A program made the position numbers and the translations under genes. The notes beneath the pieces were generated by a model, which ran no database searches, had not been told where the DNA came from, and saw nothing but the letters and a program-made list of their open reading frames with translations. Positions 4,550 to 18,432 of a stretch of DNA of 21,054 nt are shown here, one piece after another (the first letter of the stretch is position 1; each line of letters begins with the position of its first letter). The DNA lies in contig JAUNNV010000029.1 in NCBI GenBank assembly GCA_030531335.1, forward strand, positions 1 to 21,054. Direction: 5' to 3'. The DNA is from Bacteroidales bacterium. Its GTDB lineage: Bacteria; Bacteroidota; Bacteroidia; Bacteroidales; Bacteroidaceae.

Positions 4550-4580
4550 CAAATATAGGGACAAATAGATGAATTGCAAA
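4550..4580 (-). promoter_or_regulatory. Candidate Bacteroides-type promoter for the NfeD-like/flotillin pair
   Basis: The minus strand reads TTTG (4580-4577), a 19-nt spacer, then TATATTTG (4557-4550). This matches the Bacteroidetes -33 TTTG / -7 TAnnTTTG consensus. The -7 box ends 31 nt (4519-4549) upstream of the ATG at 4518. Confidence 0.5.
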
Positions 4581-4590
4581 ACAAATCGGC

Positions 4591-4624
4591 AAGAAAAAAC
4601 CCATATCCTCGAGAAGGATATGGG
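4591..4624 (-). terminator. Rho-independent terminator closing the long minus-strand operon
   Basis: The minus-strand RNA reads CCCAUAUCCU-ucucg-AGGAUAUGGG, a perfect 10-bp stem with a 5-nt loop (4600-4624), followed by UUUUUUCUU (4599-4591). It lies 45 nt after the stop of the 4670..7108 gene. No T-tract follows the hairpin in the plus orientation, so it is unidirectional. Confidence 0.85.
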
Positions 4625-4669
4625 CTTGATATTAGAACTTGGGGTGAGGGAGGAAATGACGGATGGGAA

Positions 4670-7108
4670 TCACATTTCGACCAAATGGAAGGAGGTCTGT
4701 CCTATCTGGAAGCTTTCGCCATGCCAGAGTTGATATTCCTTTCCAAGCGCGAGATATTTGCCCCCCTTCAAGGTGATGCCATCTACGGCACAGATACGCA
4801 CTACGCCATGCCTTTCATAAACCTTCACCTGCACGGGAGCCACGTCGCTTTGGAGATCCCAAGTGAGTTGCAAGGCGCAATCGACCGACTTGCCGATGGT
4901 GACAACTGTGTGAGGTGATGAGCGTAGCCATTTGTAGAGTGCGATGTCCATATCCTTGACAGATCCCGACACGTGCAGGAAAAAATGCTTGCCGACCGAC
5001 AAGGGTTGAGTCATGCACACCGCTATGGCCACACCATAGCCGATGAACACGAACAATGTCTTCATTAGTTCCGAAACCGTCTGTAGTTCCGCAACCATTT
5101 CCCAAAACAAAGTGCTCGCCACACCCACGACAGCCAGCATCAGCCACTGTCGCCTTTTGAGCCACAGGCGCGAATGATAGGTGGATACACAAGCGATGAC
5201 AAGTGTAGTCAGCACCCAAGGCAGCAGGTCGAACACAAACGAGCCCTCGTAAAGATTGAGCACGACAAGAGTGGCATTGTTGAAAACGAACACAAAAAAC
5301 ACGAGGACACACGCCACGGATGCCCGGACGAACTGCCCAAACAACCTTATGTGCCAACTATACTTGAACAACGTGAAGATTGACAGGGCAAAGGTAAGGA
5401 CGAAACCGATGATGCAACCAAATGTGGGAAGTGTATATAAACGTGAGGAGATGATGTCCAAATCCTGGGGGGAAAATGGGGATACACCTTGCTCGTGAAA
5501 GCCCAACAAGGAAATCGCGATACCATCGAAGAGGTCGAGAAAGAGTGAGCGAAAATGTGGATCCCACACAACCAACCAACCGATCGACGCCGCAGCGATG
5601 GCTACAAGGATCCAGCGTGTGAAGGGGGATGCGTTTTGAGGGTCGAGCAAGTTGGAACGGTTGTAATAATGCGAGCCATCGGGGCAATGCCTTCCATGTT
5701 CGGGGCAATGTTGTCCGTTTTCATTCCAACACTCCAAATGCATCACATGGCTGCATCTTGCCACGATACGGTCGCCCACGGCAAAGGGAGCCTTACAGTA
5801 ATAACATTCGTCGGGGATGGCGATGGCATTGATGCTCATGCGCCCCCCTGTATAGGTGAGGACATACTTGCGCTGAAAGATGACATAGCGTACAAATGGT
5901 TCCAACAGTTGCAAGGCCACGTAGGCGAGCAACAAGACCAGCAAGGCGATAATGATGCCGCGTGAAGCGATGTGGCCGGGCGATTTGTACCCACCGGTAA
6001 CGATTGGCACGTCAATGCTTCCGCACGCATATTCCTTGGAGCACCGGGCAATCAGGCTGTCGTTCCGGTCGTGGAAACTCAATTCCAGCCTGCGCGAACA
6101 GCCGTAGTAGATTTTCCCATCGGGATTCTCGAGCCGGATGGCGAAATCGGGATAGCCAATGCCGAAGGACGCGAAATTGTGTTTGCGCAACTCGACGGCA
6201 CTCAAACCATCGATGACACCCCCCCCCGATTGCTGGCAGAACACCTGCATCATATCCTTGTCGTCGGTGGAACTGTTTCCAGAGTCGGTCGAGGGAGTAC
6301 ACACGTAGCAAATGGCGGGTGCGGAAAACGAGGTGTCGGCGAGTTGTTGTAGGATTTGAGCCTGCACCCAGTAGTGGTCGGGGTCGAGAGGCGTATTGTC
6401 CGTCTCGTCATACACATGGCTGTCCGACAGTATCGCGATGGTGCGGTATGCAGCCGAGTCGAGAGGTGTTCCGGTGCCTTTGCGCAGTTTGCCGAGCATG
6501 AAGTACAAGGCACGATACACGTAAGGAGGAAGTTTGGTGTCGGACACACGATATTTGGAATTGCCGTTTACGTAATTGTCGATTACGTATGGCGAGACCT
6601 CCATGATAGGCGACAACTCGCCTTCGGAAAGGATGAACGAGATAAACACATTCCCATCGCCATACAGACGTATCAGCGAACGGATGTAGTCGCGTTCCTT
6701 TTCAAGCATGTCGGACGATTGGCACAAATCGACCATCAGCAGCAACTTGAGTCCCAACTTGGCATTTTCGGAAGCCACCACGTTGTTGAAGGAAACGACA
6801 TGTGGATGGGTCGATTCTGACCAAGGCACGAACTGGCGTTTCAGCTCCTTCACTGTCATGTGGATCAAGGAGCTGTCCTCAAGTAGGTATTTGTCCAAAT
6901 CATGGGTAATGTCCAACTCCAAGCTTATCTGTTTCACGTCGGTTGAAACGTTCATCGAGCGTATGGCCAAGGCATGGGTCTCGTGTTCGACCGAAGAAGG
7001 ATTCAACTCCGTGAACCGACTGCACGAGGCAAGTAGCAGAATGTATGGTAGCCAGACAGCAAACTGGCTGAAACGACGGAAACAACAAATTACAGACGGT
7101 TTCATCAT
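4670..7108 (-). CDS. Polytopic lipoprotein with four modules: periplasmic vWA-like domain, TM helix, cytoplasmic RING-H2-type zinc finger, six more TM helices, C-terminal FHA domain. Candidate membrane E3 ligase / signalling subunit.
   Basis: Lipobox LLLASC (Cys29). vWA-like strands are KLLLMVDLCQSSDM (a DxCxS degenerate MIDAS) and RTIAILSDSHVYDE. TM1 spans about aa 384-402. Residues 435-471 follow C-X2-C-X13-C-X-H-X2-H-X2-C-X7-C-X2-H, including CSHVMHLECW. By my hydrophobicity reading there are six further hydrophobic helices (aa ~497-700). The C-terminus VVTIGKSVDCALQLTW...VYERHGVVRICAVDGITLKGGKYLALGKEYQLWHGESFQIGQTSFHL is FHA-like. Confidence 0.7.
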   Translation of the reverse strand: MMKPSVICCFRRFSQFAVWLPYILLLASCSRFTELNPSSVEHETHALAIRSMNVSTDVKQISLELDITHDLDKYLLEDSSLIHMTVKELKRQFVPWSESTHPHVVSFNNVVASENAKLGLKLLLMVDLCQSSDMLEKERDYIRSLIRLYGDGNVFISFILSEGELSPIMEVSPYVIDNYVNGNSKYRVSDTKLPPYVYRALYFMLGKLRKGTGTPLDSAAYRTIAILSDSHVYDETDNTPLDPDHYWVQAQILQQLADTSFSAPAICYVCTPSTDSGNSSTDDKDMMQVFCQQSGGGVIDGLSAVELRKHNFASFGIGYPDFAIRLENPDGKIYYGCSRRLELSFHDRNDSLIARCSKEYACGSIDVPIVTGGYKSPGHIASRGIIIALLVLLLAYVALQLLEPFVRYVIFQRKYVLTYTGGRMSINAIAIPDECYYCKAPFAVGDRIVARCSHVMHLECWNENGQHCPEHGRHCPDGSHYYNRSNLLDPQNASPFTRWILVAIAAASIGWLVVWDPHFRSLFLDLFDGIAISLLGFHEQGVSPFSPQDLDIISSRLYTLPTFGCIIGFVLTFALSIFTLFKYSWHIRLFGQFVRASVACVLVFFVFVFNNATLVVLNLYEGSFVFDLLPWVLTTLVIACVSTYHSRLWLKRRQWLMLAVVGVASTLFWEMVAELQTVSELMKTLFVFIGYGVAIAVCMTQPLSVGKHFFLHVSGSVKDMDIALYKWLRSSPHTVVTIGKSVDCALQLTWDLQSDVAPVQVKVYERHGVVRICAVDGITLKGGKYLALGKEYQLWHGESFQIGQTSFHLVEM
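4673..4912 (-). other. FHA (forkhead-associated, phosphothreonine-binding) domain at the C-terminus of the 812-aa protein
   Basis: The pattern T-I-G-(K/R)-x...D..L...VS..HA-like is degenerate here (TIGKSVDCALQL...APVQVKVYERHGVVRI). It is followed by G(I)TLKGG...L..G..I.IG...F, which is typical of FHA C-terminal strands. Confidence 0.6.
5684..5806 (-). other. RING-H2-like zinc-finger motif within the 812-aa protein (aa 435-475)
   Basis: The segment is CYYCKAPFAVGDRIVARCSHVMHLECWNENGQHCPEHGRHC. Ligand spacing fits the RING-H2 consensus C-X2-C-X(9-39)-C-X(1-3)-H-X(2-3)-H-X2-C-X(4-48)-C-X2-C, with the last ligand His471 (or Cys475). Codons were checked: tgt at 5806-5804 and 5797-5795. Confidence 0.6.
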
Positions 7109-7110
7109 TG

Positions 7111-8076
7111 TCAGATGGTGGGATATTCGTTATCGTTAAATTGTGTCATGGACTTGTACTGCTTCGCCGCTTTCTTGGCGGCCTTCAGAGCGGCATATTT
7201 GCTCTTCATCATTGAAACAAACATCAGGATGATGGCTACGGCAGCCAAACTCATCAAGGAATCCTTCAGATGTTGCATCAGAGGCACATACTTCGCCTGT
7301 TGCACCTTGTCGGATTGCGCCTTTATCTCGGCGAACAACTGGCTGAGGCTGTCCATACGATTCTTTAGCGAAGGCACCAGCAATGCGGCTTGGGTGGCCT
7401 GTTGAAATGTTTGCTGCAATTCGGCAAAGGCGATTTGTTCCTTGGCTTGCAGCTGTTGCAGCAGAGGAGCCGTCTTGGCGGTCAGCGACAGCCTCTGGGA
7501 TTCCGACAGATATTGACTGTACTGATGCCGTTTCGATTCCAGCAGTTTTTCGGCCCGTGTAATGTCCTCCATCGCCTGCAGTCGGGCTTTTTGGGCTGCA
7601 ATCGAGTCCGACACGACTTGGAAGGTCACCTGAAAAGCCGTGAACTTGTCCATCAGAATCTCGTTTTCCACAATGTCTTGTTGTCGTACTTGCGTATAGA
7701 TATTCCATTGTACATTCACATTCTGCAACATCCGATCCAGTCCTTTTAATTCTGTCATCTTGGCCTGCGAAATACTTTTCCCGATATTGAGCAGTGTGGA
7801 TATGTATGCGTCCATCTCGCCCATCGTGGCGTTGGATTGTCCGCTTGGATGCGATGTCGTGGGTAAGTCTGAATAGACATCGAACTTTGTGGGCGTAGCC
7901 CATACAGACATGGTAGCCGATATGGTCACAAGCAGGATGGTGCAGAATGAGTAAACAACTTTTGTCACAATTGATTTCCTGTTATTGGCTTCGCCCATAA
8001 CAGACTGCGTCTCGGCATAACCAAGGTAGGCTTGCCTCTGCTCTTGGCTTGCGCTGTTATTCAAATTCACTGACAT
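7111..8076 (-). CDS. Hypothetical envelope protein: N-terminal TM anchor, Q-rich periplasmic coiled coil, C-terminal TM helix, short basic tail
   Basis: Part of ORF 7111..8232. Start is moved to MSVNLNN (ATG 8076) because 8077-8232 lies inside the upstream gene; M at 7998 is an alternative. TM helices are VVYSFCTILLVTISATMSVWA and LMSLAAVAIILMFVSMM. Coiled-coil heptads include LLQQLQAKEQIAFAELQQTFQQATQAAL. No family was recognised. Confidence 0.6.
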   Translation of the reverse strand: MSVNLNNSASQEQRQAYLGYAETQSVMGEANNRKSIVTKVVYSFCTILLVTISATMSVWATPTKFDVYSDLPTTSHPSGQSNATMGEMDAYISTLLNIGKSISQAKMTELKGLDRMLQNVNVQWNIYTQVRQQDIVENEILMDKFTAFQVTFQVVSDSIAAQKARLQAMEDITRAEKLLESKRHQYSQYLSESQRLSLTAKTAPLLQQLQAKEQIAFAELQQTFQQATQAALLVPSLKNRMDSLSQLFAEIKAQSDKVQQAKYVPLMQHLKDSLMSLAAVAIILMFVSMMKSKYAALKAAKKAAKQYKSMTQFNDNEYPTI

Positions 8077-9277
8077 GTTTGAAGAAATATTTCGCTGCTG
8101 TGTCGAAAATGCCATACGCACGACGCTGTTCTTCGTTGTATATGCCTTTTTCCTCAACACCTTGCTTGGTGACGTTGATGATGTCGCGACCCATAAAGTA
8201 GATATCGCGTCGTTCCAACTCATTTTTCGCAACCAGATTTTGCGCCACCAGTTTGTCTAATTGACGTGCCGCTCGGACAAGTGCTTCGGGCGAAATACCT
8301 GTGCCGTAGAGCACGCTGCCCTCTTCCGTCAGCTCTACCGGGACGGCGCATTTCAGGGATTCAATCGAATCCACGTAGTTGTTGTAACTGTCGCGCACCA
8401 TATTCACATCGGCACATGACGATTTCGTCTCTATCGGTTGGAATTTCGACAACAGAAATTCTTGATGTTGCTTGAACACGCCGACCTCCTCGGCGGATTC
8501 CACCTTGCCTGAAGGACATATCTGATGGAGCTTCCGATACGCTTTCCGGATATCCATCAACTTGGCTTTCATGACAGCCAACGCCTCTTGTTGACCATGG
8601 CAAGGATTGCGGGCCAATGCCACCCGACAAGTAAGGTCAAGATCGTGATCGAATACTATCTCGTATTCCCGTCCTTTCTGAGTGTCTTTCAACACATCCA
8701 CCACCATGATGTTGCGAATGCGCAACGTCACATCGGATGCCTCCGGATTCACCTTGAACCGTTGTGTCAAAATTTTCTGACTTAACTTCGGCAATGTCTG
8801 AGGCGAGTCTGTCGCACTTGTCGGCAGATAGGTAGCAGGACAGGCAATGGTGAGCGAGGCGGAGTTCGGTTCCACCCAGGCATTGATAAGGTGATGGCGG
8901 CGTTTCTTCCGATACGACTTATACACCGATTCTCTTAGGTAATATTTCGAATTAGGCTCTACCAGCACCTTATATTGCAATTTCTCGGCATGAAGCCGAC
9001 GTTTGCCAAGAAACGGATGGGTAAACACATCGTTGTAGGATACGTCCTGACGGAAAGCCATGAAATCGCGATTGCCAGACAACGTGAGAACCAACTCGTC
9101 GGCAGCCTCTTCGAAAGCAAGCGTCAGGTCAAGCTCCAAGCCTTTGTCGTCGAAGGCAATCTGTATTTTCTCCTGATAAGGCGTGTCGGCATCCACACGC
9201 ACGTTTTTGGTCTCTTGAGCCTGTGCCAGGGCAGCACAGCAGGCCATGAAAAGGCAGAAGAATTTAGTCTTGGTCAT
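8057..9277 (-). CDS. Hypothetical secreted/periplasmic protein (406 aa), no recognisable family
   Basis: Signal peptide MTKTKFFCLFMACCAALAQAQE. The ORF is long and well-formed with normal composition. Its start overlaps the E2 stop by 14 nt, and its stop overlaps the next gene's start. Confidence 0.65.
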   Translation of the reverse strand: MTKTKFFCLFMACCAALAQAQETKNVRVDADTPYQEKIQIAFDDKGLELDLTLAFEEAADELVLTLSGNRDFMAFRQDVSYNDVFTHPFLGKRRLHAEKLQYKVLVEPNSKYYLRESVYKSYRKKRRHHLINAWVEPNSASLTIACPATYLPTSATDSPQTLPKLSQKILTQRFKVNPEASDVTLRIRNIMVVDVLKDTQKGREYEIVFDHDLDLTCRVALARNPCHGQQEALAVMKAKLMDIRKAYRKLHQICPSGKVESAEEVGVFKQHQEFLLSKFQPIETKSSCADVNMVRDSYNNYVDSIESLKCAVPVELTEEGSVLYGTGISPEALVRAARQLDKLVAQNLVAKNELERRDIYFMGRDIINVTKQGVEEKGIYNEEQRRAYGIFDTAAKYFFKHVSEFE

Positions 9278-9860
9278 AATATATCCAATTGTTTGGTTCT
9301 CCTTGTGTCCGAACCCAATAGGCTACTTTCAAATCCTCTGGGTAAGGAGGTTCGGGCAGTGCATGGTAGATTTCGTAGCGCAGATACAGTGCGATGCGTT
9401 CCACAGCCCATGCCAAACTGCTGTGTGTGTTGGGCATGTTCACACACACACGTCCTGCCAGGCTACCATGATACCCTATGTTGGGATGCCAAGGCAACGT
9501 GTCGCCCACAAAACGGAAGCAAGGCATAGCATCTACCTGAGGATAACGTTCGGGAAGTTTTATCTCCATCCGAAACTCATGGGCGAAAATAGGACTGCCA
9601 TCCACATTCACCCCACAGATACATTTTATAAAATAGTCTATCGAGTAGGCCGTAGGGATTCCTTCAGGGGTGGCATCGACCACTTGCATGGCGATGTCGT
9701 TGCGTTGTTTCACAAAGGCGGCAAGCTGCTCCCACTCGTAAAACAGTCGGTGTGCGCGTCCTCGAAGAGGCTTGTTCTGAAACCAGCTTGTCCCGGGCGA
9801 AGTCAAGGAAAGGGGTTTACCCTGGGAATGGATCGGGGATGAGGAAAATTGTGTCGCCAT
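9264..9860 (-). CDS. UBC-fold ubiquitin-conjugating (E2)-like enzyme
   Basis: The segment FRMEIKLPERYPQVDAMPCFRFVGDTLPWHPNIGYHGSLAGRVCVNM reproduces the E2 core signature: F.l.i.fp..YP..pP...F.....HPNi....G.iC. HPN is aa 125-127 and the candidate catalytic Cys is Cys139 (tgt at 9446-9444). The ATG at 9860 overlaps the Ubl gene by 44 nt; a TTG at 9806 is an alternative start. Confidence 0.75.
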   Translation of the reverse strand: MATQFSSSPIHSQGKPLSLTSPGTSWFQNKPLRGRAHRLFYEWEQLAAFVKQRNDIAMQVVDATPEGIPTAYSIDYFIKCICGVNVDGSPIFAHEFRMEIKLPERYPQVDAMPCFRFVGDTLPWHPNIGYHGSLAGRVCVNMPNTHSSLAWAVERIALYLRYEIYHALPEPPYPEDLKVAYWVRTQGEPNNWIYYDQD

Positions 9861-10140
9861 TGTTCACATTATAGTCGGCAAGCGTCTGTTCGGTTTTCCC
9901 AATGCGCGGCCGCATCACGCGAATCTCGTGCACGACCTCGTCTTCTTTCCCAAAGAAATAATCGAGGGGTGCTCCTGTGCTGTCGATGGAGGGAAAGTCG
10001 AATATCAGTCGGCCATCTTGTCCGGTTGAATGTTTCAGGTTGTTCATCAATGCGCCCAATGGGAGTTGCGGATTGATGACGCGGAACTTCACCTTTTTGT
10101 CCTTATAGACAATGTTAATGAAAAAATCGTCTTGGTGCAT
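9817..10140 (-). CDS. Ubiquitin-like (beta-grasp) protein whose ORF ends in Gly
   Basis: 107 aa. The strand-strand-helix opening is FINIVYKDKKVKFRVINPQLPLGALMNNLKH. The C-terminal EQTLADYNVNNGDTIFLIPDPFPG parallels ubiquitin's [22 protein letters not shown]. The last codon is ggg (9822-9820), directly followed by a TAA stop (9819-9817). It sits directly upstream of the E2. Confidence 0.65.
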   Translation of the reverse strand: MHQDDFFINIVYKDKKVKFRVINPQLPLGALMNNLKHSTGQDGRLIFDFPSIDSTGAPLDYFFGKEDEVVHEIRVMRPRIGKTEQTLADYNVNNGDTIFLIPDPFPG

Positions 10141-10163
10141 GTTTCGTCAATGATGGTTGATGG

Positions 10164-11927
10164 TTATTTGCTACGCGAATCTAAGTCAATCTTCACTTGG
10201 ATGGGGCAGATGCCCGTAGTACGCACCTCCATGAGCCTTTGTAGGTGATTTTCGATACTGGCAAAATGTTTTCCCAACGCACGTTTCACATACATGTTGT
10301 CGTGGAGCACGATACCTACCACGATGCAATAAGCATGATAGCTACCTCGTGTAAGCACCTGCTTGTGCGTACGTATGGAGGCTATCATTTCCTGCTCTAC
10401 ATTGAACCGTGTGGCCAATTCCTGATAACAAAACAACTTTAGATCTGTTTCGGTGACAAGCCGGTCGTCGGTGGCTATGAAGTAGCGTGTAGCCGTCCTC
10501 ATGGCTTCCTCGGACAACAATTCGTCGTATCCTGGTTGAGGAATCGTCACTTGATGGGATTTGGACTGGTCGAAACCTGGGGGTACCACAAACACGGCAT
10601 CGGAGGTGAGCACACTGTTCACTACAGCTCCGTTAGTGGTCAGATAGCCGACATTGAGTGAAGTGTTTTCTGGGCTTTGTCGAAGGGTGTCGCCCCAACT
10701 ATCCTTCGAGCGTTCGTGAGGAATGCCGGCAAACATCAGATAGACACCCTCGTGCGAGGTTCGCAAATGTGGATGCGTGTGTTGCGACAACTCCTTCAGG
10801 TTGTTGCGCAGGTTGTGCATCACCATGTCGGTATATTCGTTGCCCATGGCCTGAAACGCATAATAGTCGGATGTGTATTTGTCGATGAGGCCCGACAACA
10901 ACCTGTGCAGCCTCCCCTCGTTGAACCTGTCGGCACCTATGCGCCGCACCTGTAGCCGGACATTGCCTAATAGTTGGTCCTCGTCGGGACGTAGCAGATG
11001 AAGAAACTGCCCATTGTTCTTGTCATCGATACGCTGTATAGGCGCATCGGCCGAGAGGGTGGCTGTTTTCACTTCGGCGTTCACTATCAAGGCGATGTTG
11101 ACAAGCAAATCGCTCTCTTTGAAAGAAAAGTTGTCGTCGATGCCGTCGAACTCGAAGGTGAGTTCCATGCGATCAATGGCATCGATATCGTCCATTTCAT
11201 CTACGACATACAGCAATAGGTTTTGTCGGGCATACAAATCCAGGGCGCAGAAGTTGCGATAGGCAGCCATGCCTTGGAACACGTTGCCCGAACGTACGGC
11301 TTGCGACTGATTGTAGAGCAACGTATCAAGCGAGAAACAGTCGGCACACGGCAGATTCGCAAAGTCCCACGGTGCGATGAGGGGTATTTCCCTATCGCTC
11401 ATGCTTACACGCAGGCCATGGAAATCCTGGTTCTTCAAGGCAAACGCAAGGCCTTTTAGGCTTTTCACCTTGTGTGGAAAGAACATATTGACTTGCCATC
11501 TCCTTCCATCCACGCGCCTCAGCCCATCCATCTCCACCTGTATGGCTTTGGTCTTGAGCAAGGGGATGAAGTTGAAGTTGTTGTTGTCGGTTCCTTTTAA
11601 GATGAATCTCATGGACGAATCGACATCCATTTCCGTCACATTGGGCATCAGAGCCAATTGCACGACGGCTGTGGCTGGAATGGCCTTGACTGGTTCGTTC
11701 ACGCAAAGCATGTTCTGGAACTCGTCGAGCAGCTCCGTCCGCAATGCCTCCAACTCGTTGTCCGACTCGTTGAATTGATAGGCCAGTGCCGTAATCAGGA
11801 ACTTGAACAGCGGATCCGAATCCAGTCCCTCAAGACTGTCGCTTCTGTTGTTGCGGTGCCAAATATCCACACATTGGGCCATCAGCTCCTTGGCGCGTTG
11901 TCTTATTTCAAATATGTTCTGTCTCAT
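10164..11927 (-). CDS. tssF: TssF-like (phage gp6-like) baseplate wedge subunit
   Basis: 587 aa, the typical TssF size. The N-terminus IRQRAKELMAQCVDIWHRNN...DSDPLFKFLITALAYQFNESDNELEALRTELLDEFQNML...IPATAVVQL matches the remembered TssF N-terminal layout: a helical segment, the DP(l/h)v..Ll motif, then PAhAv. It is positioned directly after a gp25/TssE gene. Confidence 0.6.
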   Translation of the reverse strand: MRQNIFEIRQRAKELMAQCVDIWHRNNRSDSLEGLDSDPLFKFLITALAYQFNESDNELEALRTELLDEFQNMLCVNEPVKAIPATAVVQLALMPNVTEMDVDSSMRFILKGTDNNNFNFIPLLKTKAIQVEMDGLRRVDGRRWQVNMFFPHKVKSLKGLAFALKNQDFHGLRVSMSDREIPLIAPWDFANLPCADCFSLDTLLYNQSQAVRSGNVFQGMAAYRNFCALDLYARQNLLLYVVDEMDDIDAIDRMELTFEFDGIDDNFSFKESDLLVNIALIVNAEVKTATLSADAPIQRIDDKNNGQFLHLLRPDEDQLLGNVRLQVRRIGADRFNEGRLHRLLSGLIDKYTSDYYAFQAMGNEYTDMVMHNLRNNLKELSQHTHPHLRTSHEGVYLMFAGIPHERSKDSWGDTLRQSPENTSLNVGYLTTNGAVVNSVLTSDAVFVVPPGFDQSKSHQVTIPQPGYDELLSEEAMRTATRYFIATDDRLVTETDLKLFCYQELATRFNVEQEMIASIRTHKQVLTRGSYHAYCIVVGIVLHDNMYVKRALGKHFASIENHLQRLMEVRTTGICPIQVKIDLDSRSK

Positions 11928-11943
11928 CGTTATGCACCCTTCA

Positions 11944-12387
11944 TTAGTTCCATACGTTTATGATGTTGCTGTACTGAAAAGGCTCGTTTGTATCGCCCAA
12001 CAGGCCGGTTATTTCCACCAATACTTGCCGTTGGTCGCGGCGGTAGTTCATTACTACCTTTGGTGAGAGCAACCGAGGCTCATACACCTCGATGCTATGC
12101 TTCAGGTCGGAGGCGAATGTCTGTAGGTTCTTCGAGGAGCCGGAAACTTTCTTCTTGTATATTGGATTCCGGCTGTCACGAGAATCGAACACCGTCCCCT
12201 CGTTCTCGTCGAAAATCTCAAATCTCAACGTGGAGAACACAAAGCCATAATCCGGATCGATGGGCAAAGAGCCCAACGGTGTGTCCATCAGGAGCTGTAG
12301 CGAATCCCTGACCGATTGCTCCAACCCGTTCGACTGATGGAGGAACCTGCCCGACACTACCTGTAAAGGACTTTGCAAGTATTTCAT
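11944..12387 (-). CDS. tssE: GPW/gp25-family baseplate protein (TssE-like)
   Basis: 147 aa. LEQSVRDSLQLLMDTPLGSLPIDPDYGFVFSTLRFEIFDEN fits the gp25 signature (I..sl..LL.T..Ge....P.yG). Both size and position next to the TssF-like gene are as expected. Confidence 0.75.
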   Translation of the reverse strand: MKYLQSPLQVVSGRFLHQSNGLEQSVRDSLQLLMDTPLGSLPIDPDYGFVFSTLRFEIFDENEGTVFDSRDSRNPIYKKKVSGSSKNLQTFASDLKHSIEVYEPRLLSPKVVMNYRRDQRQVLVEITGLLGDTNEPFQYSNIINVWN

Positions 12388-13589
12388 ATCAATGGTGTGA
12401 AAACATCTTCCGGCTGATGTTCCTCCTTGGCCACGAGACCAGACAGCGCATTGAACAATGCAGGGTAAAGTTCCTGATATAGCCTATCGTGCAATGCTTC
12501 GTACAGCACTTCTTTCAGCTTCGGACGAAGTCGATCGTCCACGTATGCCTGCAGTTTTTCCGTGATTGTCGCGGTCAGTTCAGGCATCACCACGTCGCGA
12601 AGTTCCATGCGGATTTTTTCGTCTATTTGCTGCTTCAATTGTTCAAGAAGTTGTGTGTACAACTCTCTCTTCAGCGCCTCCACATCGATGTGGCGACTTT
12701 CCGTCACCACATCGTCCATGGACAGTAGCAAGGCGTTCATGAATTCTTTGAGCCACGACAGGTAGGCTCGGATATGGTTTGTGTGAGGCACGCGGCGAGG
12801 GTCGGCGGCCAGCTCGCGCGTGGGTTCTTGTCCTGAGCCCTGCCGAAGGACTTGTTGGCCTCCCAATCCCAATCGGATGTGGTAATCCAAGGCTTGATCC
12901 GTTTCGCGCAACAGTCGCACAAGCTCCACTACCGACTCCTTGCCGGTGAGGCTCTGTAGCCGGAAACACAGATGTAACAAGGTGCGTTTGCCGTCACCAT
13001 CCTCCATGTTGCGGTGGGTAGCCAGCTTCGTGAGTAGTTCCACATACATGCTTACGAACTCTCCGAAAGCCTTGTGCGAGGCTGTCGAGATCATGGGAGG
13101 CACATACGAGGCATCCACATTGAGCAGGTCGCCCTCTACGTAAAGCCTCTTCAGCGGCAGTACGTCCAAACTTTCGTCGGCACGTTCCAACTCGTCCAGC
13201 GAATGCAGCGAGAGCTCGTAAACGGGAGCCTTGTAGGGTATGCCATCGCGTTCGAAACAATGTGTTTTCCCATTGGCAGGGCCGACGCACACAAAACATT
13301 CCGGCAACGGTTGCGACACGATGGTCAGCGTGAGGTCGTCATCTACGCTGAGCACGGCCCCCGATGGCAACAATGCCGTAAGCCTCAGATTGTTCATCTC
13401 GAAGGTGTTGCCCACAAAAGCGCCCTCAACGTGTAGTGGGTACATGGGGAGAATGCCCATGCCGACACTCCCTATGGCGGCGCGGAGCAACAGTTGCTGA
13501 CGGTTGTCGAAGTCGTGTTGCTGATGGACGAAGACCCCAGAGGTGAGCTCCATCCCTGGTTGCCAATGTATATTTGCGTTGTAATACAT
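12384..13589 (-). CDS. TssK-like baseplate protein (N-terminal domain) with a divergent helical C-terminus
   Basis: The N-terminus NIHWQPGMELTSGVFVHQQHDFDNRQQLL resembles the TssK opening motif (W.eGm.L.pqHfQq.dry). The C-terminal ~100 aa are repetitive helices (LKRELYTQLLEQLKQQIDEKIRMELRDVVMPELTATITEKLQAYV...). Its stop overlaps the gp25 start in an ATGA junction (12384-12387). Confidence 0.45.
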   Translation of the reverse strand: MYYNANIHWQPGMELTSGVFVHQQHDFDNRQQLLLRAAIGSVGMGILPMYPLHVEGAFVGNTFEMNNLRLTALLPSGAVLSVDDDLTLTIVSQPLPECFVCVGPANGKTHCFERDGIPYKAPVYELSLHSLDELERADESLDVLPLKRLYVEGDLLNVDASYVPPMISTASHKAFGEFVSMYVELLTKLATHRNMEDGDGKRTLLHLCFRLQSLTGKESVVELVRLLRETDQALDYHIRLGLGGQQVLRQGSGQEPTRELAADPRRVPHTNHIRAYLSWLKEFMNALLLSMDDVVTESRHIDVEALKRELYTQLLEQLKQQIDEKIRMELRDVVMPELTATITEKLQAYVDDRLRPKLKEVLYEALHDRLYQELYPALFNALSGLVAKEEHQPEDVFTPLI

Positions 13590-13631
13590 GCCTTTATGTC
13601 ATTTTATGATGGATTTTGGTTTCGCGACTCA

Positions 13632-14432
13632 TCATTCATAGTCCTTAATTACGATATTGTAGTTCATGATTTTCCCTTCCTCCGACTTGCCCTTGGCTCC
13701 TGCCTCAAACAGGCAGTCGAAAGGAATGAACCGGCTGTGCACAAATGCAAGCATACGTTCCCATCGTTTGGTAAGGTCGGCGTATGCGGTGGCTGTCAGA
13801 CCATCCACACAAATGTCGTAATGCACTTTTTGCATCCAAAAGCGTGTGTTGTCGCATTCGTTGTACGCCGACAAACGCATCCGCACCGGATAACCCGTGA
13901 CAACGCTCAGCAATGATTTTACAAACGACAAGTTGCCACGGAGTTTGGCCACGTATGGCAGCAACACCGCCACCTTGCGCACATACTCGTCCGTTTCCGC
14001 CTCCAAGTCGAACTTGTAGGATGTTTTTAACACGAATTCGAGCTTGCGGGCCAGCAAGTCGGCCACGATGTGTTCCCGCTTCAGCTTCTGCCTGAACATG
14101 AACGAGTCGATGGGTAGGAAAGTTTCTGACAGTGTCCTTATCCGCTCATGCAACTGTTGGGCAAGCTGTTTGAAATCGCCTTTTCGTTTCCTTCCGAAAC
14201 GGTCGGATGCCTTCAGCTCATCCTCCGATCCTAAAAACAAGGGAGGCAGATAGTGTAGGAAGCCGTTGCGCGAAAGCGATACGATTGCTTCCTTCGGATT
14301 GATGGACAACACATCCGGCGCATAGTTCCTGCTGAAGGAACCTTTCTGATAGGCCAGCCACTTGTCTTCCAGCTCTGGATACAAATAGTTGAGCAACAGT
14401 TCCGCACTTATCTCGTGCCTGTCGGTTGTCAT
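13632..14432 (-). CDS. Possible TssG-like baseplate subunit (tentative)
   Basis: 266 aa, in the TssG size range. The C-terminus YDICVDGLTATAYADLTKRWERMLAFVHSRFIPFDCLFEAG resembles the TssG tail pattern (igpL....f..flP.g....l..lv..flP..l). It lies among baseplate genes. Evidence is weak and pattern-level only. Confidence 0.35.
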   Translation of the reverse strand: MTTDRHEISAELLLNYLYPELEDKWLAYQKGSFSRNYAPDVLSINPKEAIVSLSRNGFLHYLPPLFLGSEDELKASDRFGRKRKGDFKQLAQQLHERIRTLSETFLPIDSFMFRQKLKREHIVADLLARKLEFVLKTSYKFDLEAETDEYVRKVAVLLPYVAKLRGNLSFVKSLLSVVTGYPVRMRLSAYNECDNTRFWMQKVHYDICVDGLTATAYADLTKRWERMLAFVHSRFIPFDCLFEAGAKGKSEEGKIMNYNIVIKDYE

Positions 14433-15478
14433 AGTTCCACGTACCTATATCCTGTTGGGGTCTTTATTCTCACAATGTCGTGTGCTGGAATGCCCAACGC
14501 AGCCAATGGCAGCGTGGGGTAGGGGAACGAGGTGTCTATCTCCGCATATTCGTGTTGGCATAGTTTCGCCATCGGTATGGTCGAAAGTCGTGGATGTTGC
14601 TTCACGAAGCCAGCCATTCGGCGTGCCGGCAGCATTGCTTCCGTCTGTTCGCCCGTCTCTCGATTCTCTACATAATCCACAAAGGCATCGTTGAGCACCA
14701 CAGTGCCAATCCGCAGGAGTGATTTCAGCGAGTGTTCCCTGACTACTTCAATAGGCTCCCATTGCTCGTGCAGCACGCAATCGTCATCCCACGCCTCGAA
14801 CACGGCTTTCCGCACACTCAGGTTTTCGCCATCGTAGTAGCACATGTTTCGTTCCACTGGCACGCCTGCAATCACTTTCAATGCTTCGGCTGCTTGCCAG
14901 GCTCCTATCACGCTGGCCGCCACTGATGTGGTAGGGGCATGGCCAGCCGCTTCCATTTGCCGTATCACGCCCGAACAAGGCATCCGTCGGCGCAACTCGT
15001 CCAGTCCTTCCGTCCCGAGGCCACAAGCGTAGCAGTTCACGCCGGGCACAAACACCCGCATCGTCCCCTCCATGCCGATGATGCCACCGTCAATCCATGT
15101 CTTTCCTGCCCTCGTACAGAGGCGCTGGATGCAATAGCGGGTCCACCGGCTATCGACGCATCCCATCACCACGTTCATCTGCCGTATCAATGCCAATCCC
15201 ACATCGTATGCCACATCGCCATGGATGGCCTGCACATCGACGGTGGCGTTGATGCCTCTCAGCGCGTCCTTCACCACATCCACTTTGCGCCGACCCACAT
15301 CGACTGGCCTGAACAGGATGCTTCGTGTGAGGTTGCCCTGTTCCACCACATCGAAATCGACCACCACCAGATGCCCCACTCCAAGCAGTACGAGGTTTTT
15401 GAGCACCTCGTTGCCCAGGGCCCCACATCCCACCACCATGATGCGGGCATCGCGCAGCTTGTCTTCTTCGATGTTCAT
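14429..15478 (-). CDS. ThiF/MoeB/E1-like adenylyltransferase (Ubl-activating enzyme candidate)
   Basis: Start is set at MNIEEDKLRDARIMVVGCGALGNEV (ATG 15478, forming an ATGA overlap with the upstream stop). The Rossmann GxGxxG is at 15413-15430. Other family motifs are VVDFDVVEQGNLTRSILF, GRRKVDVVKDAL, VVMGCVDSRWTRYCIQRLC and GTMRVFVPGVNCYACGL. A crossover-loop Cys lies in RRRMPCSGV. About 130 extra C-terminal residues end in LAALGIPAHDIVRIKTPTGYRYVEL. Confidence 0.8.
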   Translation of the reverse strand: MNIEEDKLRDARIMVVGCGALGNEVLKNLVLLGVGHLVVVDFDVVEQGNLTRSILFRPVDVGRRKVDVVKDALRGINATVDVQAIHGDVAYDVGLALIRQMNVVMGCVDSRWTRYCIQRLCTRAGKTWIDGGIIGMEGTMRVFVPGVNCYACGLGTEGLDELRRRMPCSGVIRQMEAAGHAPTTSVAASVIGAWQAAEALKVIAGVPVERNMCYYDGENLSVRKAVFEAWDDDCVLHEQWEPIEVVREHSLKSLLRIGTVVLNDAFVDYVENRETGEQTEAMLPARRMAGFVKQHPRLSTIPMAKLCQHEYAEIDTSFPYPTLPLAALGIPAHDIVRIKTPTGYRYVEL

Positions 15479-16200
15479 CCGATTGGTAGTTTGTCCTGAA
15501 TGCTGTTGAAGACCTTGTCGAGCTTCATGCTCTGTCCGCCTTTTGTGATGTCCGTTGTGGATGTATCCTTCGCATTGCCGGCCACATGGCGGTTGTAGGC
15601 TTCCTCGATTTCCTTTTTCTTGTCGTTGTAGAGTCGTTCCATCATTTCGGAATACGTGTCGAAAATTTCCTGCAACTTGTCCTTGGCCTCTTTTACCGCC
15701 TCTTCCGAGCTTCCTACAGTGCGACTGGCTACCGCAGACGCAGCCCTCGTCTTTTCTGCCTCGATTTTCGTCTTGCATTCCGAGTAGAGTGCATCGGTGG
15801 CCGTGTCGAGTAAATCCTTGCGTTCCTTATTTACATCGGGCATCGTGAGCAGTAGGTATTTGGCATCGATGCCATTCTCATCGTCTGCCCCAGGAGCAGT
15901 TTCGAGCGTCACCTTGAATTCCGGATGCACTTCCGTGATGCCTTTGTAAATGCAGGAGAAGTACGCCGAATCCTTTGGATATACATTCATCATGTGTTTT
16001 TCGTTCTCATCCTCGTGCACTAAAATGTCGGCCACGTCCTCAATGCGTTTGTCCATGCCACCATACACCATCTCCACTCCCAGCAACGAAGAGGGATCGG
16101 CCTTGACACACACGTTGCAGAACAGGTACGACATGCTTGCCACATGTCCCAGCATCCTGTTCTGTGTTTCTATCAATGCGACTTCTACCGATCGTTTCAT
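15475..16200 (-). CDS. Hypothetical protein with apparent ribosome-recycling-factor (RRF)-like fold
   Basis: 241 aa. Three segments align by eye to E. coli Frr as I remember it:
- [32 protein letters not shown]...[18 protein letters not shown] versus [52 protein letters not shown].
- [38 protein letters not shown] versus [38 protein letters not shown].
- [25 protein letters not shown] versus [25 protein letters not shown].
It also has an insertion and a ~45-aa C-terminal extension. Confidence 0.4.
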   Translation of the reverse strand: [241 protein letters not shown]

Positions 16201-16239
16201 TTGTTATTTGCCATTTACCATATTCTCTAATATCTCTTA

Positions 16240-16629
16240 CTATTTGCCCTCTGCAAGGCACGCATTGCCGGGGAAGTTCACGGAGATGTTTCCACCCCAG
16301 TTGCACATACATTTGCAGTTGTCGAGCAGTGCAGGCATTTGTTTTACCATTTCTTTTCCTCCAGGCATCCATGGAGCGGCTATCACTGGCATGCAGGGCA
16401 TGGGCGTAAGTGCTCCGAATGCTGCAGCCGTGGCCGCAGCCACCTGAGGATTCGACAAGCTTTGGCACATGCCGAAAGGCATGATGTTCATCATCGGCTT
16501 GTTGTCGCCGATGTTTCCTATGGGTTTCCCCTGTACCTTTGGTCGGGTGGGATCCACCACCATGAAGTTGGAAGGAGCCATCCCGAACGAGCACTGCAGG
16601 ATTGCTCCGGCCGTTACGAATTTTCCCAT
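16240..16629 (-). CDS. DUF4280 (PAAR-like) domain protein, candidate spike-tip protein
   Basis: 129 aa. FVTAGAILQCSFGMAPSNFMVV...VQGKPIGNIGDNKPMMNIMPFGMCQSLSNP...TPMPCMPVIAAPWMPGG...QMPALLDNCKCMCNWGGNISV matches the DUF4280 pattern (A.l.Cs.G..Ps.l.v...g.p.a...D....NI.pFG.C...nP...PC.P....W......g.paL...s.l.C..gG.I). Confidence 0.75.
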   Translation of the reverse strand: MGKFVTAGAILQCSFGMAPSNFMVVDPTRPKVQGKPIGNIGDNKPMMNIMPFGMCQSLSNPQVAAATAAAFGALTPMPCMPVIAAPWMPGGKEMVKQMPALLDNCKCMCNWGGNISVNFPGNACLAEGK

Positions 16630-16638
16630 TGTATTTTT

Positions 16639-18432
16639 TTATTTTCCTACTTCCTCTTCCTTCATCTTTGCCGACGCTTTTCCTGGTGTCGAGGCTGCCG
16701 GCACGGCCACACCGTCTGTGATGTTCTGCGACTTGAACGACGAAGAGGCCTCCAAATTCTTGAACACGCCCTTGGGAGCCGTGGTGTCGCCCTTGATGTC
16801 GGTCTTGCCTTCTATGGTGGTGTCGCCCTTCAGCGCATTCTTGCCTCCACCTGCCGTAAGGTTTCCGCCTTCGAGCGTAATCACTGCCTTTCCTTCTCCC
16901 TGCTGCAGTTCGGTGGTGGTGTTGCCCATGATGCCCACTTGCTCGGCAGCTATCTGCACCAGTTTGCCCTTGGTTTTCTTGTCCTTGCTGCCAGCAAGCA
17001 GCTTTTCCGCCACAAGTACCATCTGCGAACTGGCGGCCAGTGCCTTGTCCGTGCGTTTCTCCTTATCCACATCCATGGCTGCCACCTGAATGTTCTTGGC
17101 GTTGAGTGTCAGTTCGCCTGTAGCCATTCCTTCGGTGTCGGTAGCTTCTATCTTCATTTTCTCTGCCCTGACAAGCAGGGTGCCATCCTTGGTCAGTGCC
17201 TTCTCCTGCCGTTTTTTGTCCTTCAGTTCCTCGTCGATGGCCTGTATGGTGACATTCTTCGAGGTAATCACCACGTTGCCCAAAGCGGGTATGTCGCCTT
17301 TTTCGCCCTTCTCGTCGAGTTGGGCGGAGGCTGTGGAGAGGTTCACCTCCTGTAGGTTGACGTTCAGTGTGCTGTCGGCCATCAGTGCGCCCTTCGTGTC
17401 GTGTGCCACCACGTCGATGTGAGGCATTTGTACATACAATCCGGCTTCGGCGTTCTGGCGCAGGTTGCCGTCGCCGTCGGTCGAGACCATGCTTACGAAT
17501 TCGGAACGCAGGGCGATGTGCGACGAGGTGGTGTTCTTGTCGAAATCGGCACTGGCTTTGCCGAGCTCCTCTTTGGTGTCCTTCAGGGCCTGTGCCTTCC
17601 GATTGAGTTCGGCTTCGGACGAAAGCAACCTGATGTAGTCGGTCAGTGAGGAGTAAAGCATCCGTTCCAGGTCCTGGAACTTGTCGGCCAGATCCGACAA
17701 CTCGGGTTGGTTCGCCCGCAGGTGTTCCTCCGTGTCGTTCAGTGTGTCCTGGCTTTTTATGAGCTTTTCTATGTCGTCCAGGTTTTTCAGCACCGTCTTC
17801 TTGGCATTGGCAGCCAACTTCGCAATGTCGCCACTGTATTTTTCCAAATCTTTCACACGCTCGTCGATGGCGGCGGTCTGTAGTTTGTTCGACGGTGTGG
17901 CGCTTATCGCCACATAAGAGTCCGCATGTATGTCGATGCCGGTGCTACAGCTGCCTGCTTCGGCCACGAACGCGCCGGTGGTGTCGTTGCTCTGCAGGGT
18001 GATGGCGCGAGCTTGGTTCACGATTTCGGAGTTCATGCACACCACGTTCTCCATGCCGTCGGTACCGGGATCCACGGCGATGTGGCGAATGCTGGCTGCT
18101 CTCGACACGATGCTTCCCCCTATGTCGGGAGATCCTGTACCCTCCAGGCTTACGCGGTTTCCGCGTATCACCACCGTGCCGCCTCCGCCATGCTCTCCCA
18201 TCAGCTCGCCGCTGCGGTTCACGTTGCCGATGATGACCGTCGGAGCCGAAAGAATGAGGCATTGGTCGTCGCGCACGTATTTCACGCCGCTCACCGTGTG
18301 ATGGATTTCCTCCCTCAGCCGTCGCACCTCGCTTTTTTGCTTGCGGATTTCCGCAACGTCCTTTCTCACGCTGCTTTCGAAAGCCTCCAGTGCCTGCTTC
18401 AGGTCGTCAAGAATATATGCCATCTTTTTCAA
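16639..18432 (-). CDS. Hypothetical protein with three parts: N-terminal coiled coil, central coiled coil, repetitive beta-solenoid-like C-terminal half
   Basis: 597 aa. Periodic units of the type x-L-x-A-K-N-I-x-V-x-A-x-D recur: VVITSKNVTIQAIDEE, LLVRAEKMKIEATDTE, LTLNAKNIQVAAMDVD, AVITLEGGNLTAGGG, DTTIEGKTDIKGDTT. No gp27/gp5 (VgrG) signature was recognised. It lies 9 nt upstream of the PAAR-like gene. Confidence 0.55.
   Translation of the reverse strand: MKKMAYILDDLKQALEAFESSVRKDVAEIRKQKSEVRRLREEIHHTVSGVKYVRDDQCLILSAPTVIIGNVNRSGELMGEHGGGGTVVIRGNRVSLEGTGSPDIGGSIVSRAASIRHIAVDPGTDGMENVVCMNSEIVNQARAITLQSNDTTGAFVAEAGSCSTGIDIHADSYVAISATPSNKLQTAAIDERVKDLEKYSGDIAKLAANAKKTVLKNLDDIEKLIKSQDTLNDTEEHLRANQPELSDLADKFQDLERMLYSSLTDYIRLLSSEAELNRKAQALKDTKEELGKASADFDKNTTSSHIALRSEFVSMVSTDGDGNLRQNAEAGLYVQMPHIDVVAHDTKGALMADSTLNVNLQEVNLSTASAQLDEKGEKGDIPALGNVVITSKNVTIQAIDEELKDKKRQEKALTKDGTLLVRAEKMKIEATDTEGMATGELTLNAKNIQVAAMDVDKEKRTDKALAASSQMVLVAEKLLAGSKDKKTKGKLVQIAAEQVGIMGNTTTELQQGEGKAVITLEGGNLTAGGGKNALKGDTTIEGKTDIKGDTTAPKGVFKNLEASSSFKSQNITDGVAVPAASTPGKASAKMKEEEVGK

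Follow-up and report, generated by a model that had tools for sequence, protein, structure and literature searches.

Why would the operon of a contractile injection machine carry, among the genes of its baseplate, a set of genes of ubiquitin type? The question is raised by a contig (JAUNNV010000029.1) of a Bacteroidales metagenome-assembled genome (MAG), which was analysed over its entire 21,054 bp and is referred to here as the window: genes for a ubiquitin-like protein (Ubl), a Ubl-activating enzyme (E1), a conjugating enzyme (E2) and a RING-H2 protein that is a candidate ligase (E3) share one operon with genes of a type VI secretion system (T6SS). The explanation of the whole that we hold to be best, with somewhat better than even confidence, is that the window covers the downstream two thirds of a complete T6SS cluster from a distinct Bacteroidales lineage, in which an integral conjugation cascade acts where baseplate and membrane complex dock.

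Thirteen genes run on the minus strand from position 18432 down to 4670 with nearly no spacing (Table 1), in the order 597-aa protein, DUF4280 protein, ribosome-recycling-factor (RRF)-like protein, E1, 266-aa protein, TssK, TssE/gp25, TssF, Ubl, E2, 406-aa protein, coiled-coil protein and RING/FHA lipoprotein, followed by a terminator. A preliminary description of this DNA, made from its letters, had reported this order and tight packing, and the coordinates and junction lengths agree with it. The RRF-like and E1 genes overlap by 4 nt, as do the TssK and TssE genes; the E1 gene is coupled to the 266-aa gene by the reported ATGA overlap, also of 4 nt; the Ubl gene starts, as reported, 23 nt past the TssF stop codon and overlaps the E2 gene by 44 nt, which in turn overlaps the 406-aa gene by 14 nt; and the operon is indeed closed by a terminator-like hairpin. 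The start codon of E1 had to be moved to Met101 of the long open reading frame (ORF); the protein then measures 349 aa and its start overlaps, as ATGA, the stop codon before it, so that such overlaps are found at both ends of the E1 gene.

The preliminary description also held that the ubiquitin-type genes are not a side island, a claim that depends on whether the arrangement is kept elsewhere. One genome per species was scanned with an alignment of the TssF family, which returned 74 loci; with four further contigs these make a set of 78 loci in which a gene-by-gene census was taken with hidden Markov models, and an independent metagenome scan, separate from this set, used the 597-aa protein as query. 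The block E1-266-TssK-TssE-TssF-Ubl-E2-406-coiled-coil-RING is collinear in the 78 loci (one rearranged member is taken up below) and in about 100 loci in all, with the ubiquitin-type genes at fixed positions among the baseplate genes. The carriers are Prevotella, Prevotellaceae, Xylanibacter ruminicola, Alistipes, Parabacteroides (including P. distasonis An897), Bacteroides mediterraneensis, Mediterranea, Millionella, Caecibacteroides and unclassified Bacteroidales, to which a search with the Ubl added Paludibacteraceae and Tannerellaceae. In the census the Ubl was found 76 times, the E2 76, the E1 73, the RING protein 73, the 406-aa protein 76 and the coiled-coil protein 74, and every absence lies at a contig end except that of E1 in the rearranged locus. 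Among metagenome loci with room for the genes, Ubl and E2 were present in 19 of 19 and E1 in 24 of 24. The Ubl-E2 pair always stands directly before the three envelope genes, even in the rearranged locus. Since TssF identity to the window is as low as 33-47% across the loci of the genome scan (74% in one of them, L005), the linkage must be old and maintained across several Bacteroidales families, and it is not the strain-specific insertion that such a comparison might have revealed. The cascade is most likely an integral, vertically co-inherited part of the T6SS machine.

That the machine is a T6SS follows from its TssE, TssK and TssF proteins, a DUF4280 PAAR-like protein, the 3' end of a VgrG gene, and the genes for ClpV, TssB, TssC, three copies of Hcp and VgrG that lie directly upstream in relatives. 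Domains were called with Pfam and NCBIfam scans, and PADLOC models served for defence-type genes. Beyond the matches listed in Table 1, the 147-aa protein matches NCBIfam TssE at E 2.6e-7 (30.3 bits against a cutoff of 53.2), Pfam T6SS_VasE is found in 14 of 17 homologues of the TssK protein (best E 2e-5), and the best fold matches of the 587-aa protein model are to TssF (6n38, E 2e-14). The baseplate identities first proposed for these three proteins thus stand. The 266-aa protein, proposed as TssG, has no profile support: it gave no Pfam, NCBIfam or PDB profile match, and a Pfam scan of 16 homologues returned noise only, although its gene lies between E1 and TssK in 75 of the 78 loci.

The preliminary description had found no sheath, tube, ClpV or VgrG gene and had offered three ways out, namely that the apparatus is split, is non-canonical or continues beyond position 21054. 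The last was right, and a split or sheathless apparatus is rejected, because the contig ends inside a VgrG gene whose frame is open to base 21052. Its product aligns with residues 772-1163 of the ~1160-1176-aa Phage_base_V protein of two close relatives (L001 and L005; E 1.6e-237), and the Phage_base_V domain itself is seen in full-length VgrG relatives. In Prevotella relatives the upstream genes are those for ClpV, for TssC (PF17541), for Hcp (PF17642) and for a 154-aa protein whose position marks it as TssB; another Hcp and VgrG lie downstream. The full order of the window type, seen in metagenome loci, is ClpV-TssB-TssC-Hcp-Hcp-Hcp-161-aa-VgrG-597-aa-DUF4280-(PEGA and/or RRF-like)-E1-266-aa, continuing from there as TssK-TssE-TssF-Ubl-E2-406-aa-coiled-coil-RING protein, and TssC is present in 25 of the 35 metagenome loci that have at least 9 kb of sequence upstream of the 597-aa gene. 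The evidence on sheath, tube and ClpV therefore comes from relatives, the window contig stopping before that region. As an observation apart, the C-terminal ~420 aa of VgrG in the window have no family match, and they are low in G+C (0.42 at 20001-21000), with a G+C at third codon positions of 0.49 against about 0.65 in neighbouring genes; this part may be an exchangeable cargo or toxin domain.

If the machine is a T6SS, is the cascade beside it one that could work? The Ubl was modelled with AlphaFold (pLDDT 87) and the model compared with the PDB by Foldseek: all top 50 matches have the ubiquitin/SUMO/beta-grasp fold, with the ubiquitin of Caldiarchaeum first and with SUMO, ubiquitin variants, the Ubl of the Bil defence system (8tyx, 8tyz) and the Ubl domain of EccD1 among them. 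Aligned by family profile, the C-terminal strand region (TLADYNVNNGDTIFLI) corresponds to ubiquitin residues 53-70, and the Pfam/NCBIfam scan gave a weak Rad60-SLD match. All 95 copies (76 plus 19 homologues) end in Pro-Gly before the stop codon, with the consensus DP[FI]PG, so the call of a Ubl with a terminal Gly was sound on both counts. It is also the best conserved protein of the operon, with a median identity to the window of 72%, as against 61% for the DUF4280 protein, 50% for E1, 49% for E2, 42% for TssE, 38% for TssF, 32% for TssK and for the RING protein, and 27% for the 406-aa protein, which fits a protein that has to satisfy many partners.

The E1 carries a ThiF domain (Pfam E 8e-52), as its ThiF motifs had suggested. 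Its best sequence matches in the PDB are the eukaryotic enzymes UBA7, UBA1 and SAE2 (E 4e-26 to 1e-21), with MoeB, MccB and ThiF ranked behind them and Cap2 of the cyclic-oligonucleotide-based antiphage signalling system (CBASS) far behind. The GCGALGNE motif, the NCYAC zinc motif and Cys166 of 'MPCSG' are conserved at 95% or more, a figure that here and below refers to residue conservation among about 75 divergent family copies. Cys166 occupies the loop cysteine site of ThiF, Uba5-type and MoeB-type enzymes and is, from this position, the candidate catalytic cysteine. The ~115-aa C-terminal domain was compared with the ubiquitin fold: hhalign against the Ubl profile gave a probability of 6%, and a PDB profile search nothing meaningful.

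The E2 matches Pfam UQ_con at E 4.8e-6, with 26.7 bits against a cutoff of 27, and its PWHPNI...AGxVC motif, including Cys139, is invariant among the copies, in keeping with the HPN...C motif by which it had first been recognised. PDB matches of the family profile are weak (UBE2K, E 0.02) and are all to eukaryotic E2s; a homologue at E 1e-20 (P0263) scores 33.6 bits, above the UQ_con threshold, and by these profile comparisons the UBC-fold identity of the 198-aa protein is confirmed. At E<=1e-3 in a 50%-representative library it belongs to a wider prokaryotic UBC family of 203 representatives, some of whose members carry fused tandem Ubls, Ubls of YukD type, JAB domains or EAD11, an adaptor of conflict systems; they belong to the bacterial E1/E2/RING/JAB systems of Aravind's group cited below, so that the cascade falls into a known class of module. 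Five relatives at 27-39% identity (P0248, P0265, P0271, P0350 and P0385) have unusual fusions: an E2 with weak downstream Ubl-type matches (P0248), EAD11-E2, YukD-E2, three E2 domains with a JAB domain, and E2-DUF4419.

The candidate E3 is the 812-aa lipoprotein that ends the operon. Hydropathy analysis, which also served for the coiled-coil protein, predicts a lipobox signal (LLLASC), a periplasmic N-terminal domain and a first transmembrane segment at residues 384-402, with a RING-H2 finger at 433-470 and an FHA-like C-terminal domain on the cytoplasmic side; of the seven hydrophobic segments, six follow the RING, at 496-699. Below curated cutoffs, zf-RING_2 is found in the window protein (E 1e-3) and in 17 of 18 family members, and Prok-RING_1 in 16 of 18; the PDB profile matches of the RING are all to RING fingers, and weak. 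The ligand pattern C-x2-C-x12-C-x-H-x2-H-x2-C-x7-C-x6-C...H is conserved at 95% or more, so that the RING-H2 finger named in the preliminary description is well founded. The FHA domain also named there was not detected in the window protein itself; of 18 homologues, 7 have it (best E 2.5e-8), in a part of the C-terminus that is well conserved. The von Willebrand factor A (vWA) label has no profile match in 18 homologues; remnants of vWA-like motifs (hhhVDLT... and hhSDG) are visible by eye. Judged from the terminal Gly and from the residues of E2, E1 and RING, the cascade is probably catalytically competent.

The 406-aa gene, conserved in 76 of the 78 loci, follows E2 directly, and next comes the gene of the coiled-coil protein. 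Its most likely start is at 7998, which corrects the first reading; in the numbering of the long ORF its hydrophobic segments span 88-106 and 324-342, and its homologues in relatives measure 284-292 aa. These two genes and that of the 812-aa protein occupy the place that the genes for TssN, Q, O, P and R have in Bacteroides loci. At the level of sequence, none of the three proteins gave a Pfam or NCBIfam match to T6SS membrane-complex families, TssNQOPR included, and the precomputed Pfam lists of relatives hold no match of TssNQOPR type either. A 2024 study of the membrane complex of Bacteroidota describes TssNQOPR as the only type in the phylum (PMC10781749), and the lineage of the window appears, from its gene content, to be an exception to that rule. 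In Bacteroides fragilis, the lipoprotein TssR measures about 790 aa and has a vWA-like domain, and TssN is a membrane protein of five helices whose cytoplasmic ubiquitin-fold domain docks TssK (PMC10781749). As counterparts the window lineage offers a polytopic lipoprotein of like size, with RING and FHA domains facing the cytoplasm, a free ubiquitin-fold protein that could be conjugated, and the enzymes for its attachment.

With T6SS subtype iii (GA1-GA3 of gut Bacteroidales, with TssNQOPR; PMC10781749, PMC4714493) the window locus shares several features. Both occur in the same phylum; ClpV, TssC of PF17541, Hcp of PF17642 and VgrG are present in relatives of the window; baseplate genes of TssE/F/G/K type are clustered with genes for envelope proteins; TssJLM is replaced by membrane proteins and by a large lipoprotein, of about 800 aa; and a ubiquitin-fold element is found at the interface of baseplate and membrane complex, in B. 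fragilis as the cytoplasmic domain of TssN. The window locus differs in that TssN, O, P, Q and R find no match in it by sequence, in that its TssF, candidate TssG and TssK are too diverged for standard profiles, in that its beta-grasp protein stands free, with a terminal Gly and with E1, E2 and RING beside it, and in that its lipoprotein is polytopic, with seven predicted transmembrane segments and RING and FHA domains.

How such a cascade might serve such a machine can be envisioned as follows. The cytosolic E1 would adenylate the exposed C-terminal Gly107 of the Ubl, load it onto the loop cysteine Cys166 and hand it to Cys139 of the E2, and the cytoplasmic RING-H2 finger of the 812-aa lipoprotein would recruit the E2~Ubl thioester. 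The 812-aa, 406-aa and coiled-coil proteins would build an envelope-spanning complex in place of TssNQOPR, and the Ubl would be attached at the site where baseplate and membrane complex dock, either to the RING protein or to one of the conserved T6SS components TssK, TssF and TssG. Docking, assembly, firing or recycling could then be under the control of the tag, with the FHA domain adding an input that depends on phospho-threonine. The acceptor is probably a conserved component and not cargo, because the spike/cargo module is variable and the Ubl and E2 genes adjoin those of the envelope proteins. The most economical reading makes the 812-aa protein both the core of the membrane complex and the E3. 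A sharper form, which we put forward tentatively and consider clearly less probable than the general account, makes it the channel-forming core of an unrecognised T6SS membrane complex, in which attachment of the Ubl, to the protein itself or to TssK, would gate or license docking and firing.

Several points weigh against the proposal of an integral cascade at the docking site. The analysis shows gene content, folds, motifs, coupling within the operon and a linkage that is conserved; conjugation, its site and its target we infer from the encoded proteins, and the T6SS lineage is known here from genes alone. That the 266-aa protein is TssG we likewise infer, from its position and from the need of any T6SS baseplate for a TssG, and the three envelope proteins are a candidate membrane complex by position, topology and analogy. 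The E2 and RING matches of the window proteins each lie below the Pfam thresholds. No conserved gene of the cluster has a family match to a deconjugating or processing peptidase, JAB or other, which is unusual for a regulatory cycle; a processing peptidase would be needless, because the Ubl already ends in Gly. Finally, the rearranged locus of a Prevotellaceae MAG (L072, CAMEQD010000023.1) has no E1 within its 19-kb span, its order being TssB-TssC-Hcp x3-161-TssK-TssE-TssF-266-Ubl-E2-406-cc-RING-DUF4280 (cc, the coiled-coil gene).

Of the alternatives that start from a different role, the one that survives best, though we think it unlikely, is that the cascade acts on the projectile or on cargo, tagging VgrG, the PAAR-like protein, Hcp or some effector for loading or marking, or that the Ubl or E2 is itself delivered. 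The operon does encode VgrG, a PAAR-like protein and the conserved 597-aa protein of the spike module; a preprint on Bil reports that the Bil Ubl goes onto a phage tail-tip protein, which is related to such spikes (bioRxiv 10.1101/2023.09.04.556158); and the lack of a deconjugating enzyme would suit a one-way tag. Yet the spike/cargo module varies and also occurs as an orphan without ubiquitin-type genes, the Ubl and E2 genes keep company with baseplate and envelope genes and not with the spike module, the RING is predicted to be anchored in the attacker's own inner membrane, and delivered effectors are not typically conserved to the very high degree seen in the Ubl.

An improbable second alternative takes the proteins for structural relics, the Ubl being a non-covalent adaptor between baseplate and membrane complex and E1, E2 and RING being scaffolds or chaperones. 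It draws on the hub protein TssN of B. fragilis, which binds TssK through a cytoplasmic ubiquitin-like domain (PMC10781749), on the presence of the EccD1 Ubl domain among the fold matches of the Ubl, and on the finding that Pfam and NCBIfam scans of the window and its relatives detected no free-standing TssN homologue. A purely structural role is argued against by the residues that only catalysis would need, namely the Gly next to the stop codon in the Ubl, HPN and Cys139 in the E2, the nucleotide motif and loop cysteine in the E1 and the Zn ligands in the RING, which are invariant or nearly so in about 75 copies.

Hardly probable either is a defence or self-protection module that travels with the T6SS and tags phage tail or foreign spike proteins. 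The known bacterial sets of E1, E2 and Ubl, those of Bil and CBASS Cap2, are antiviral (PMC10557695), distant relatives of the E2 carry conflict-system adaptors such as EAD11, and the E1 matches the 'E1-E2' models of PADLOC down to E 1.5e-17, which it does because the ThiF domain is shared. Against this, the E2 matches PADLOC models only at E 8e-4, there is no JAB gene, the E3 candidate is fused to a T6SS-specific polytopic envelope protein, and the linkage is kept across families at the low TssF identities given above; defence islands are typically patchy and not fixed at one position, and genes that are split to either side of the baseplate genes, translationally coupled to them and fixed in place argue against a hitch-hiking island. 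Outright identity with Bil or CBASS was considered and rejected, there being no JAB, the PADLOC matches of E1 being due to ThiF and the genes being interleaved with those of the T6SS. Last and far less probable is a sulfur-carrier pair of ThiS/MoaD type for cofactor or natural-product synthesis, which the best NCBIfam matches of the E1 (ThiF and MoeB, all far below their cutoffs) might suggest but which has to contend with an E2 bearing a catalytic cysteine and a RING finger co-conserved with the pair, an E1 nearer to UBA7, UBA1 and SAE2 than to MoeB or ThiF, a cluster with no sulfurtransferase or biosynthetic genes, and a Ubl that by fold and sequence resembles ubiquitin and SUMO and not ThiS or MoaD.

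We return to the integral cascade and to its nearest counterparts. The operons of Caldiarchaeum subterraneum type, with E1, E2, RING and ubiquitin (PMC5654768), likewise have a separate Ubl, a short E1, a UBC-fold E2 with HPN...Cys and a small RING-H2 protein; the Caldiarchaeum ubiquitin is the top fold match of the window Ubl, and for E1 and E2 the nearest relatives of solved structure come from eukaryotes. As to prokaryotic RING systems in general, the Prok-RING_1 matches of the 812-aa family point the same way. The window set differs from the Caldiarchaeum operons in having no Rpn11/JAB peptidase, its Ubl needing no processing, in carrying the RING within a polytopic envelope protein, in being interleaved with T6SS baseplate genes, and in a Ubl with Pro-Gly instead of Gly-Gly at its end and an insert that spans about residues 37-60. 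The Bil system (BilABCD; bioRxiv 10.1101/2023.09.04.556158; PMC10557695) shares with it a bacterial Ubl, an E1 and an E2, and its Ubl is among the fold matches, its target being, according to the preprint, a phage tail-tip protein. Bil has a JAB deubiquitinase, no RING and a stand-alone defence operon of four genes, whereas the window E2 is remote from the PADLOC E2 models, as noted, and its genes are fixed in a secretion operon.

Two further comparisons concern control at the membrane. In the T6SS of Pseudomonas and Agrobacterium, the FHA proteins Fha1/TagH take part with PpkA/PppA in control by threonine phosphorylation. In both cases an FHA domain would stand at the cytoplasmic face of the T6SS membrane complex and point to post-translational control of assembly; in the window family it is fused to a RING membrane protein, the modification machinery is of ubiquitin type, and no kinase or phosphatase gene was found in the conserved cluster. 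Hrd1 and Doa10 are polytopic membrane RING-H2 ligases of eukaryotic degradation associated with the endoplasmic reticulum, and like the candidate E3 they combine a multi-spanning protein, a cytoplasmic RING-H2, a soluble E2 and a protein-translocating membrane complex. There is no detectable homology beyond the RING, so the parallel would be one of function only.

The T6SS and the ubiquitin cascade are each of a known kind, and it is for their obligatory union that we have found no description. Bacterial systems with E1, E2, RING and JAB were described by Aravind's group (PMC7159879), and Coyne et al. (2016) reported a 'putative T6SS' in Prevotella stercorea among the few loci outside three named architectures. 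The preliminary description knew of no secretion or injection apparatus with an E1-E2-E3-Ubl cascade of its own, and this holds within the searchable literature, with the caveat that an earlier mention in the 2011 paper on prokaryotic RING fingers (Burroughs, Iyer and Aravind) is possible. Papers on bacterial ubiquitination, including PMC10557695, make no mention of secretion systems; neither the word 'ubiquitin' nor the word 'ThiF' occurs in a 2026 review on accessory factors of the T6SS; and literature searches that combined T6SS or baseplate with ubiquitin, ThiF, DUF4280 or GA4 gave nothing relevant.

Table 1. Features of the window, in the order of transcription, with the main basis of each assignment
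Feature	Coordinates	Strand	Basis or remark
VgrG-like spike gene, 3' part (C-terminal ~420 codons)	19784..21054	-	cut by contig end
BNR/sialidase-like protein, 432 aa, signal peptide	18470..19768	-	Pfam BNR_2 E 9.7e-16
Spike/cargo module protein, 597 aa	16639..18432	-	no family match (Pfam, NCBIfam); always after VgrG
DUF4280 PAAR-like spike-tip protein, 129 aa	16240..16629	-	Pfam DUF4280 E 1e-30
Ribosome-recycling-factor-like protein, 241 aa	15475..16200	-	Pfam RRF E 4.8e-12, 46.5 bits (cutoff 29.7)
E1-like Ubl-activating enzyme, 349 aa	14429..15478	-	ThiF adenylation domain and ~115-aa C-terminal domain
Candidate TssG, conserved 266-aa protein	13632..14432	-	position only
TssK baseplate subunit, 401 aa, helical C-terminal region	12384..13589	-	NCBIfam TssK E 9e-4
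TssE/gp25 baseplate wedge, 147 aa	11944..12387	-	Pfam GPW_gp25 E 3.8e-10
TssF baseplate wedge, 587 aa, strongly diverged in sequence	10164..11927	-	model fold match
Ubiquitin-like protein, 107 aa, end ...DPFPG-stop	9817..10140	-	model fold, profile, conserved terminus
UBC-type E2, 198 aa, ATG at 9860	9264..9860	-	UQ_con, HPN...Cys139; alternative start TTG 9806
Exported protein, 406 aa, signal peptide (candidate periplasmic membrane-complex subunit)	8057..9277	-	no family match
Coiled-coil protein, ~295 aa (candidate membrane-complex subunit)	7111..7998	-	N- and C-terminal transmembrane segments
Polytopic lipoprotein, 812 aa (candidate E3 and membrane-complex core)	4670..7108	-	RING-H2, transmembrane segments, lipobox
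Intrinsic-terminator-like hairpin, operon end	4597..4627	-	14-bp stem, 3-nt loop, T-run, 43 nt past stop of 812-aa gene

The upstream genes of the operon belong to a spike/cargo module, of which the 597-aa, RRF-like, PEGA and 330-aa genes vary among loci. The first two are best placed in a mobile module outside the ubiquitin set, despite the ATGA overlap of the RRF-like gene with E1, because orphan modules occur: the remaining metagenome loci consist of Hcp-161-VgrG-597-RRF, with no baseplate or ubiquitin-type genes, and one of them (L125) has two in tandem. The RRF-like and DUF4280 names given in the preliminary description are upheld by Pfam, and the DUF4280 protein also matches, below cutoff, NCBIfam T6SS IglG (the PAAR-like protein of Francisella) at E 7.7e-10; the beta-solenoid label given to the 597-aa protein is without profile support. 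An RRF paralogue travels with VgrG and the 597-aa protein in the window and in L085, L123, L125, L132 and L161. In another locus (L160) the PEGA/RRF genes are separated from E1 by additional genes over several kb, and in L130 there is no E1 in the remaining ~8 kb, so the junction between PEGA/RRF and E1 seems to be an insertion point for variable cargo. The BNR/sialidase-like gene stands between VgrG and the 597-aa gene in the window contig only, the 74%-identical relatives L001 and L005 having VgrG directly before the 597-aa gene and no BNR gene there; its membership of the system is doubtful, and it may have been inserted there or may encode cargo.

Downstream of the terminator lie units separate from the operon. 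One, at 2482-4584 on the minus strand, pairs an SPFH/Band7 gene (E 9e-30) with a gene for an NfeD-like membrane protein (weak, E 1.4e-3). Beyond it two long ORFs overlap on opposite strands, at 34-2382 (+) and 499-2289 (-), and codon statistics favour the former (0.18 against -0.01 log-odds per codon); this plus-strand gene has a probable start at MKRLIYLLSLGFFALSLQAQN, with a signal peptide, and a weak helix-hairpin-helix match.

As weapons, T6SSs have a major part in shaping the communities of gut and rumen, and the present lineage is widespread in Prevotella, Alistipes, Parabacteroides and their relatives, with human-gut metagenome assemblies among its contigs; the standard profiles used here for T6SS baseplates and membrane complexes miss most of its baseplate and envelope proteins. 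The locus suggests a T6SS machine under ubiquitin-style protein tagging, and a hard-wired cascade of E1, E2, RING and Ubl, if true, would add a new principle by which a T6SS is controlled or assembled; a different membrane complex would contradict the view of TssNQOPR as the sole type of the phylum. Should the RING-gated channel also prove true, bacteria would have their own equivalent of Hrd1 and other membrane machines gated by ubiquitin, the first known case of a secretion system run on an endogenous modification cycle of ubiquitin type, and a native role outside defence for a complete bacterial E1-E2-E3 cascade. Bacterial Ubl systems have so far been shown to conjugate in anti-phage defence only. 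Here a complete bacterial cascade has an obvious cellular machine as its context, and since several cultured hosts carry the locus, among them Xylanibacter ruminicola D31d, Parabacteroides distasonis An897, Bacteroides mediterraneensis An793, Mediterranea massiliensis Marseille-P2645, Millionella massiliensis Marseille-P3215 and Caecibacteroides pullorum AN421, the purpose of bacterial E1/E2/E3 sets becomes directly testable, with a bearing on the evolution of ubiquitin signalling before eukaryotes.

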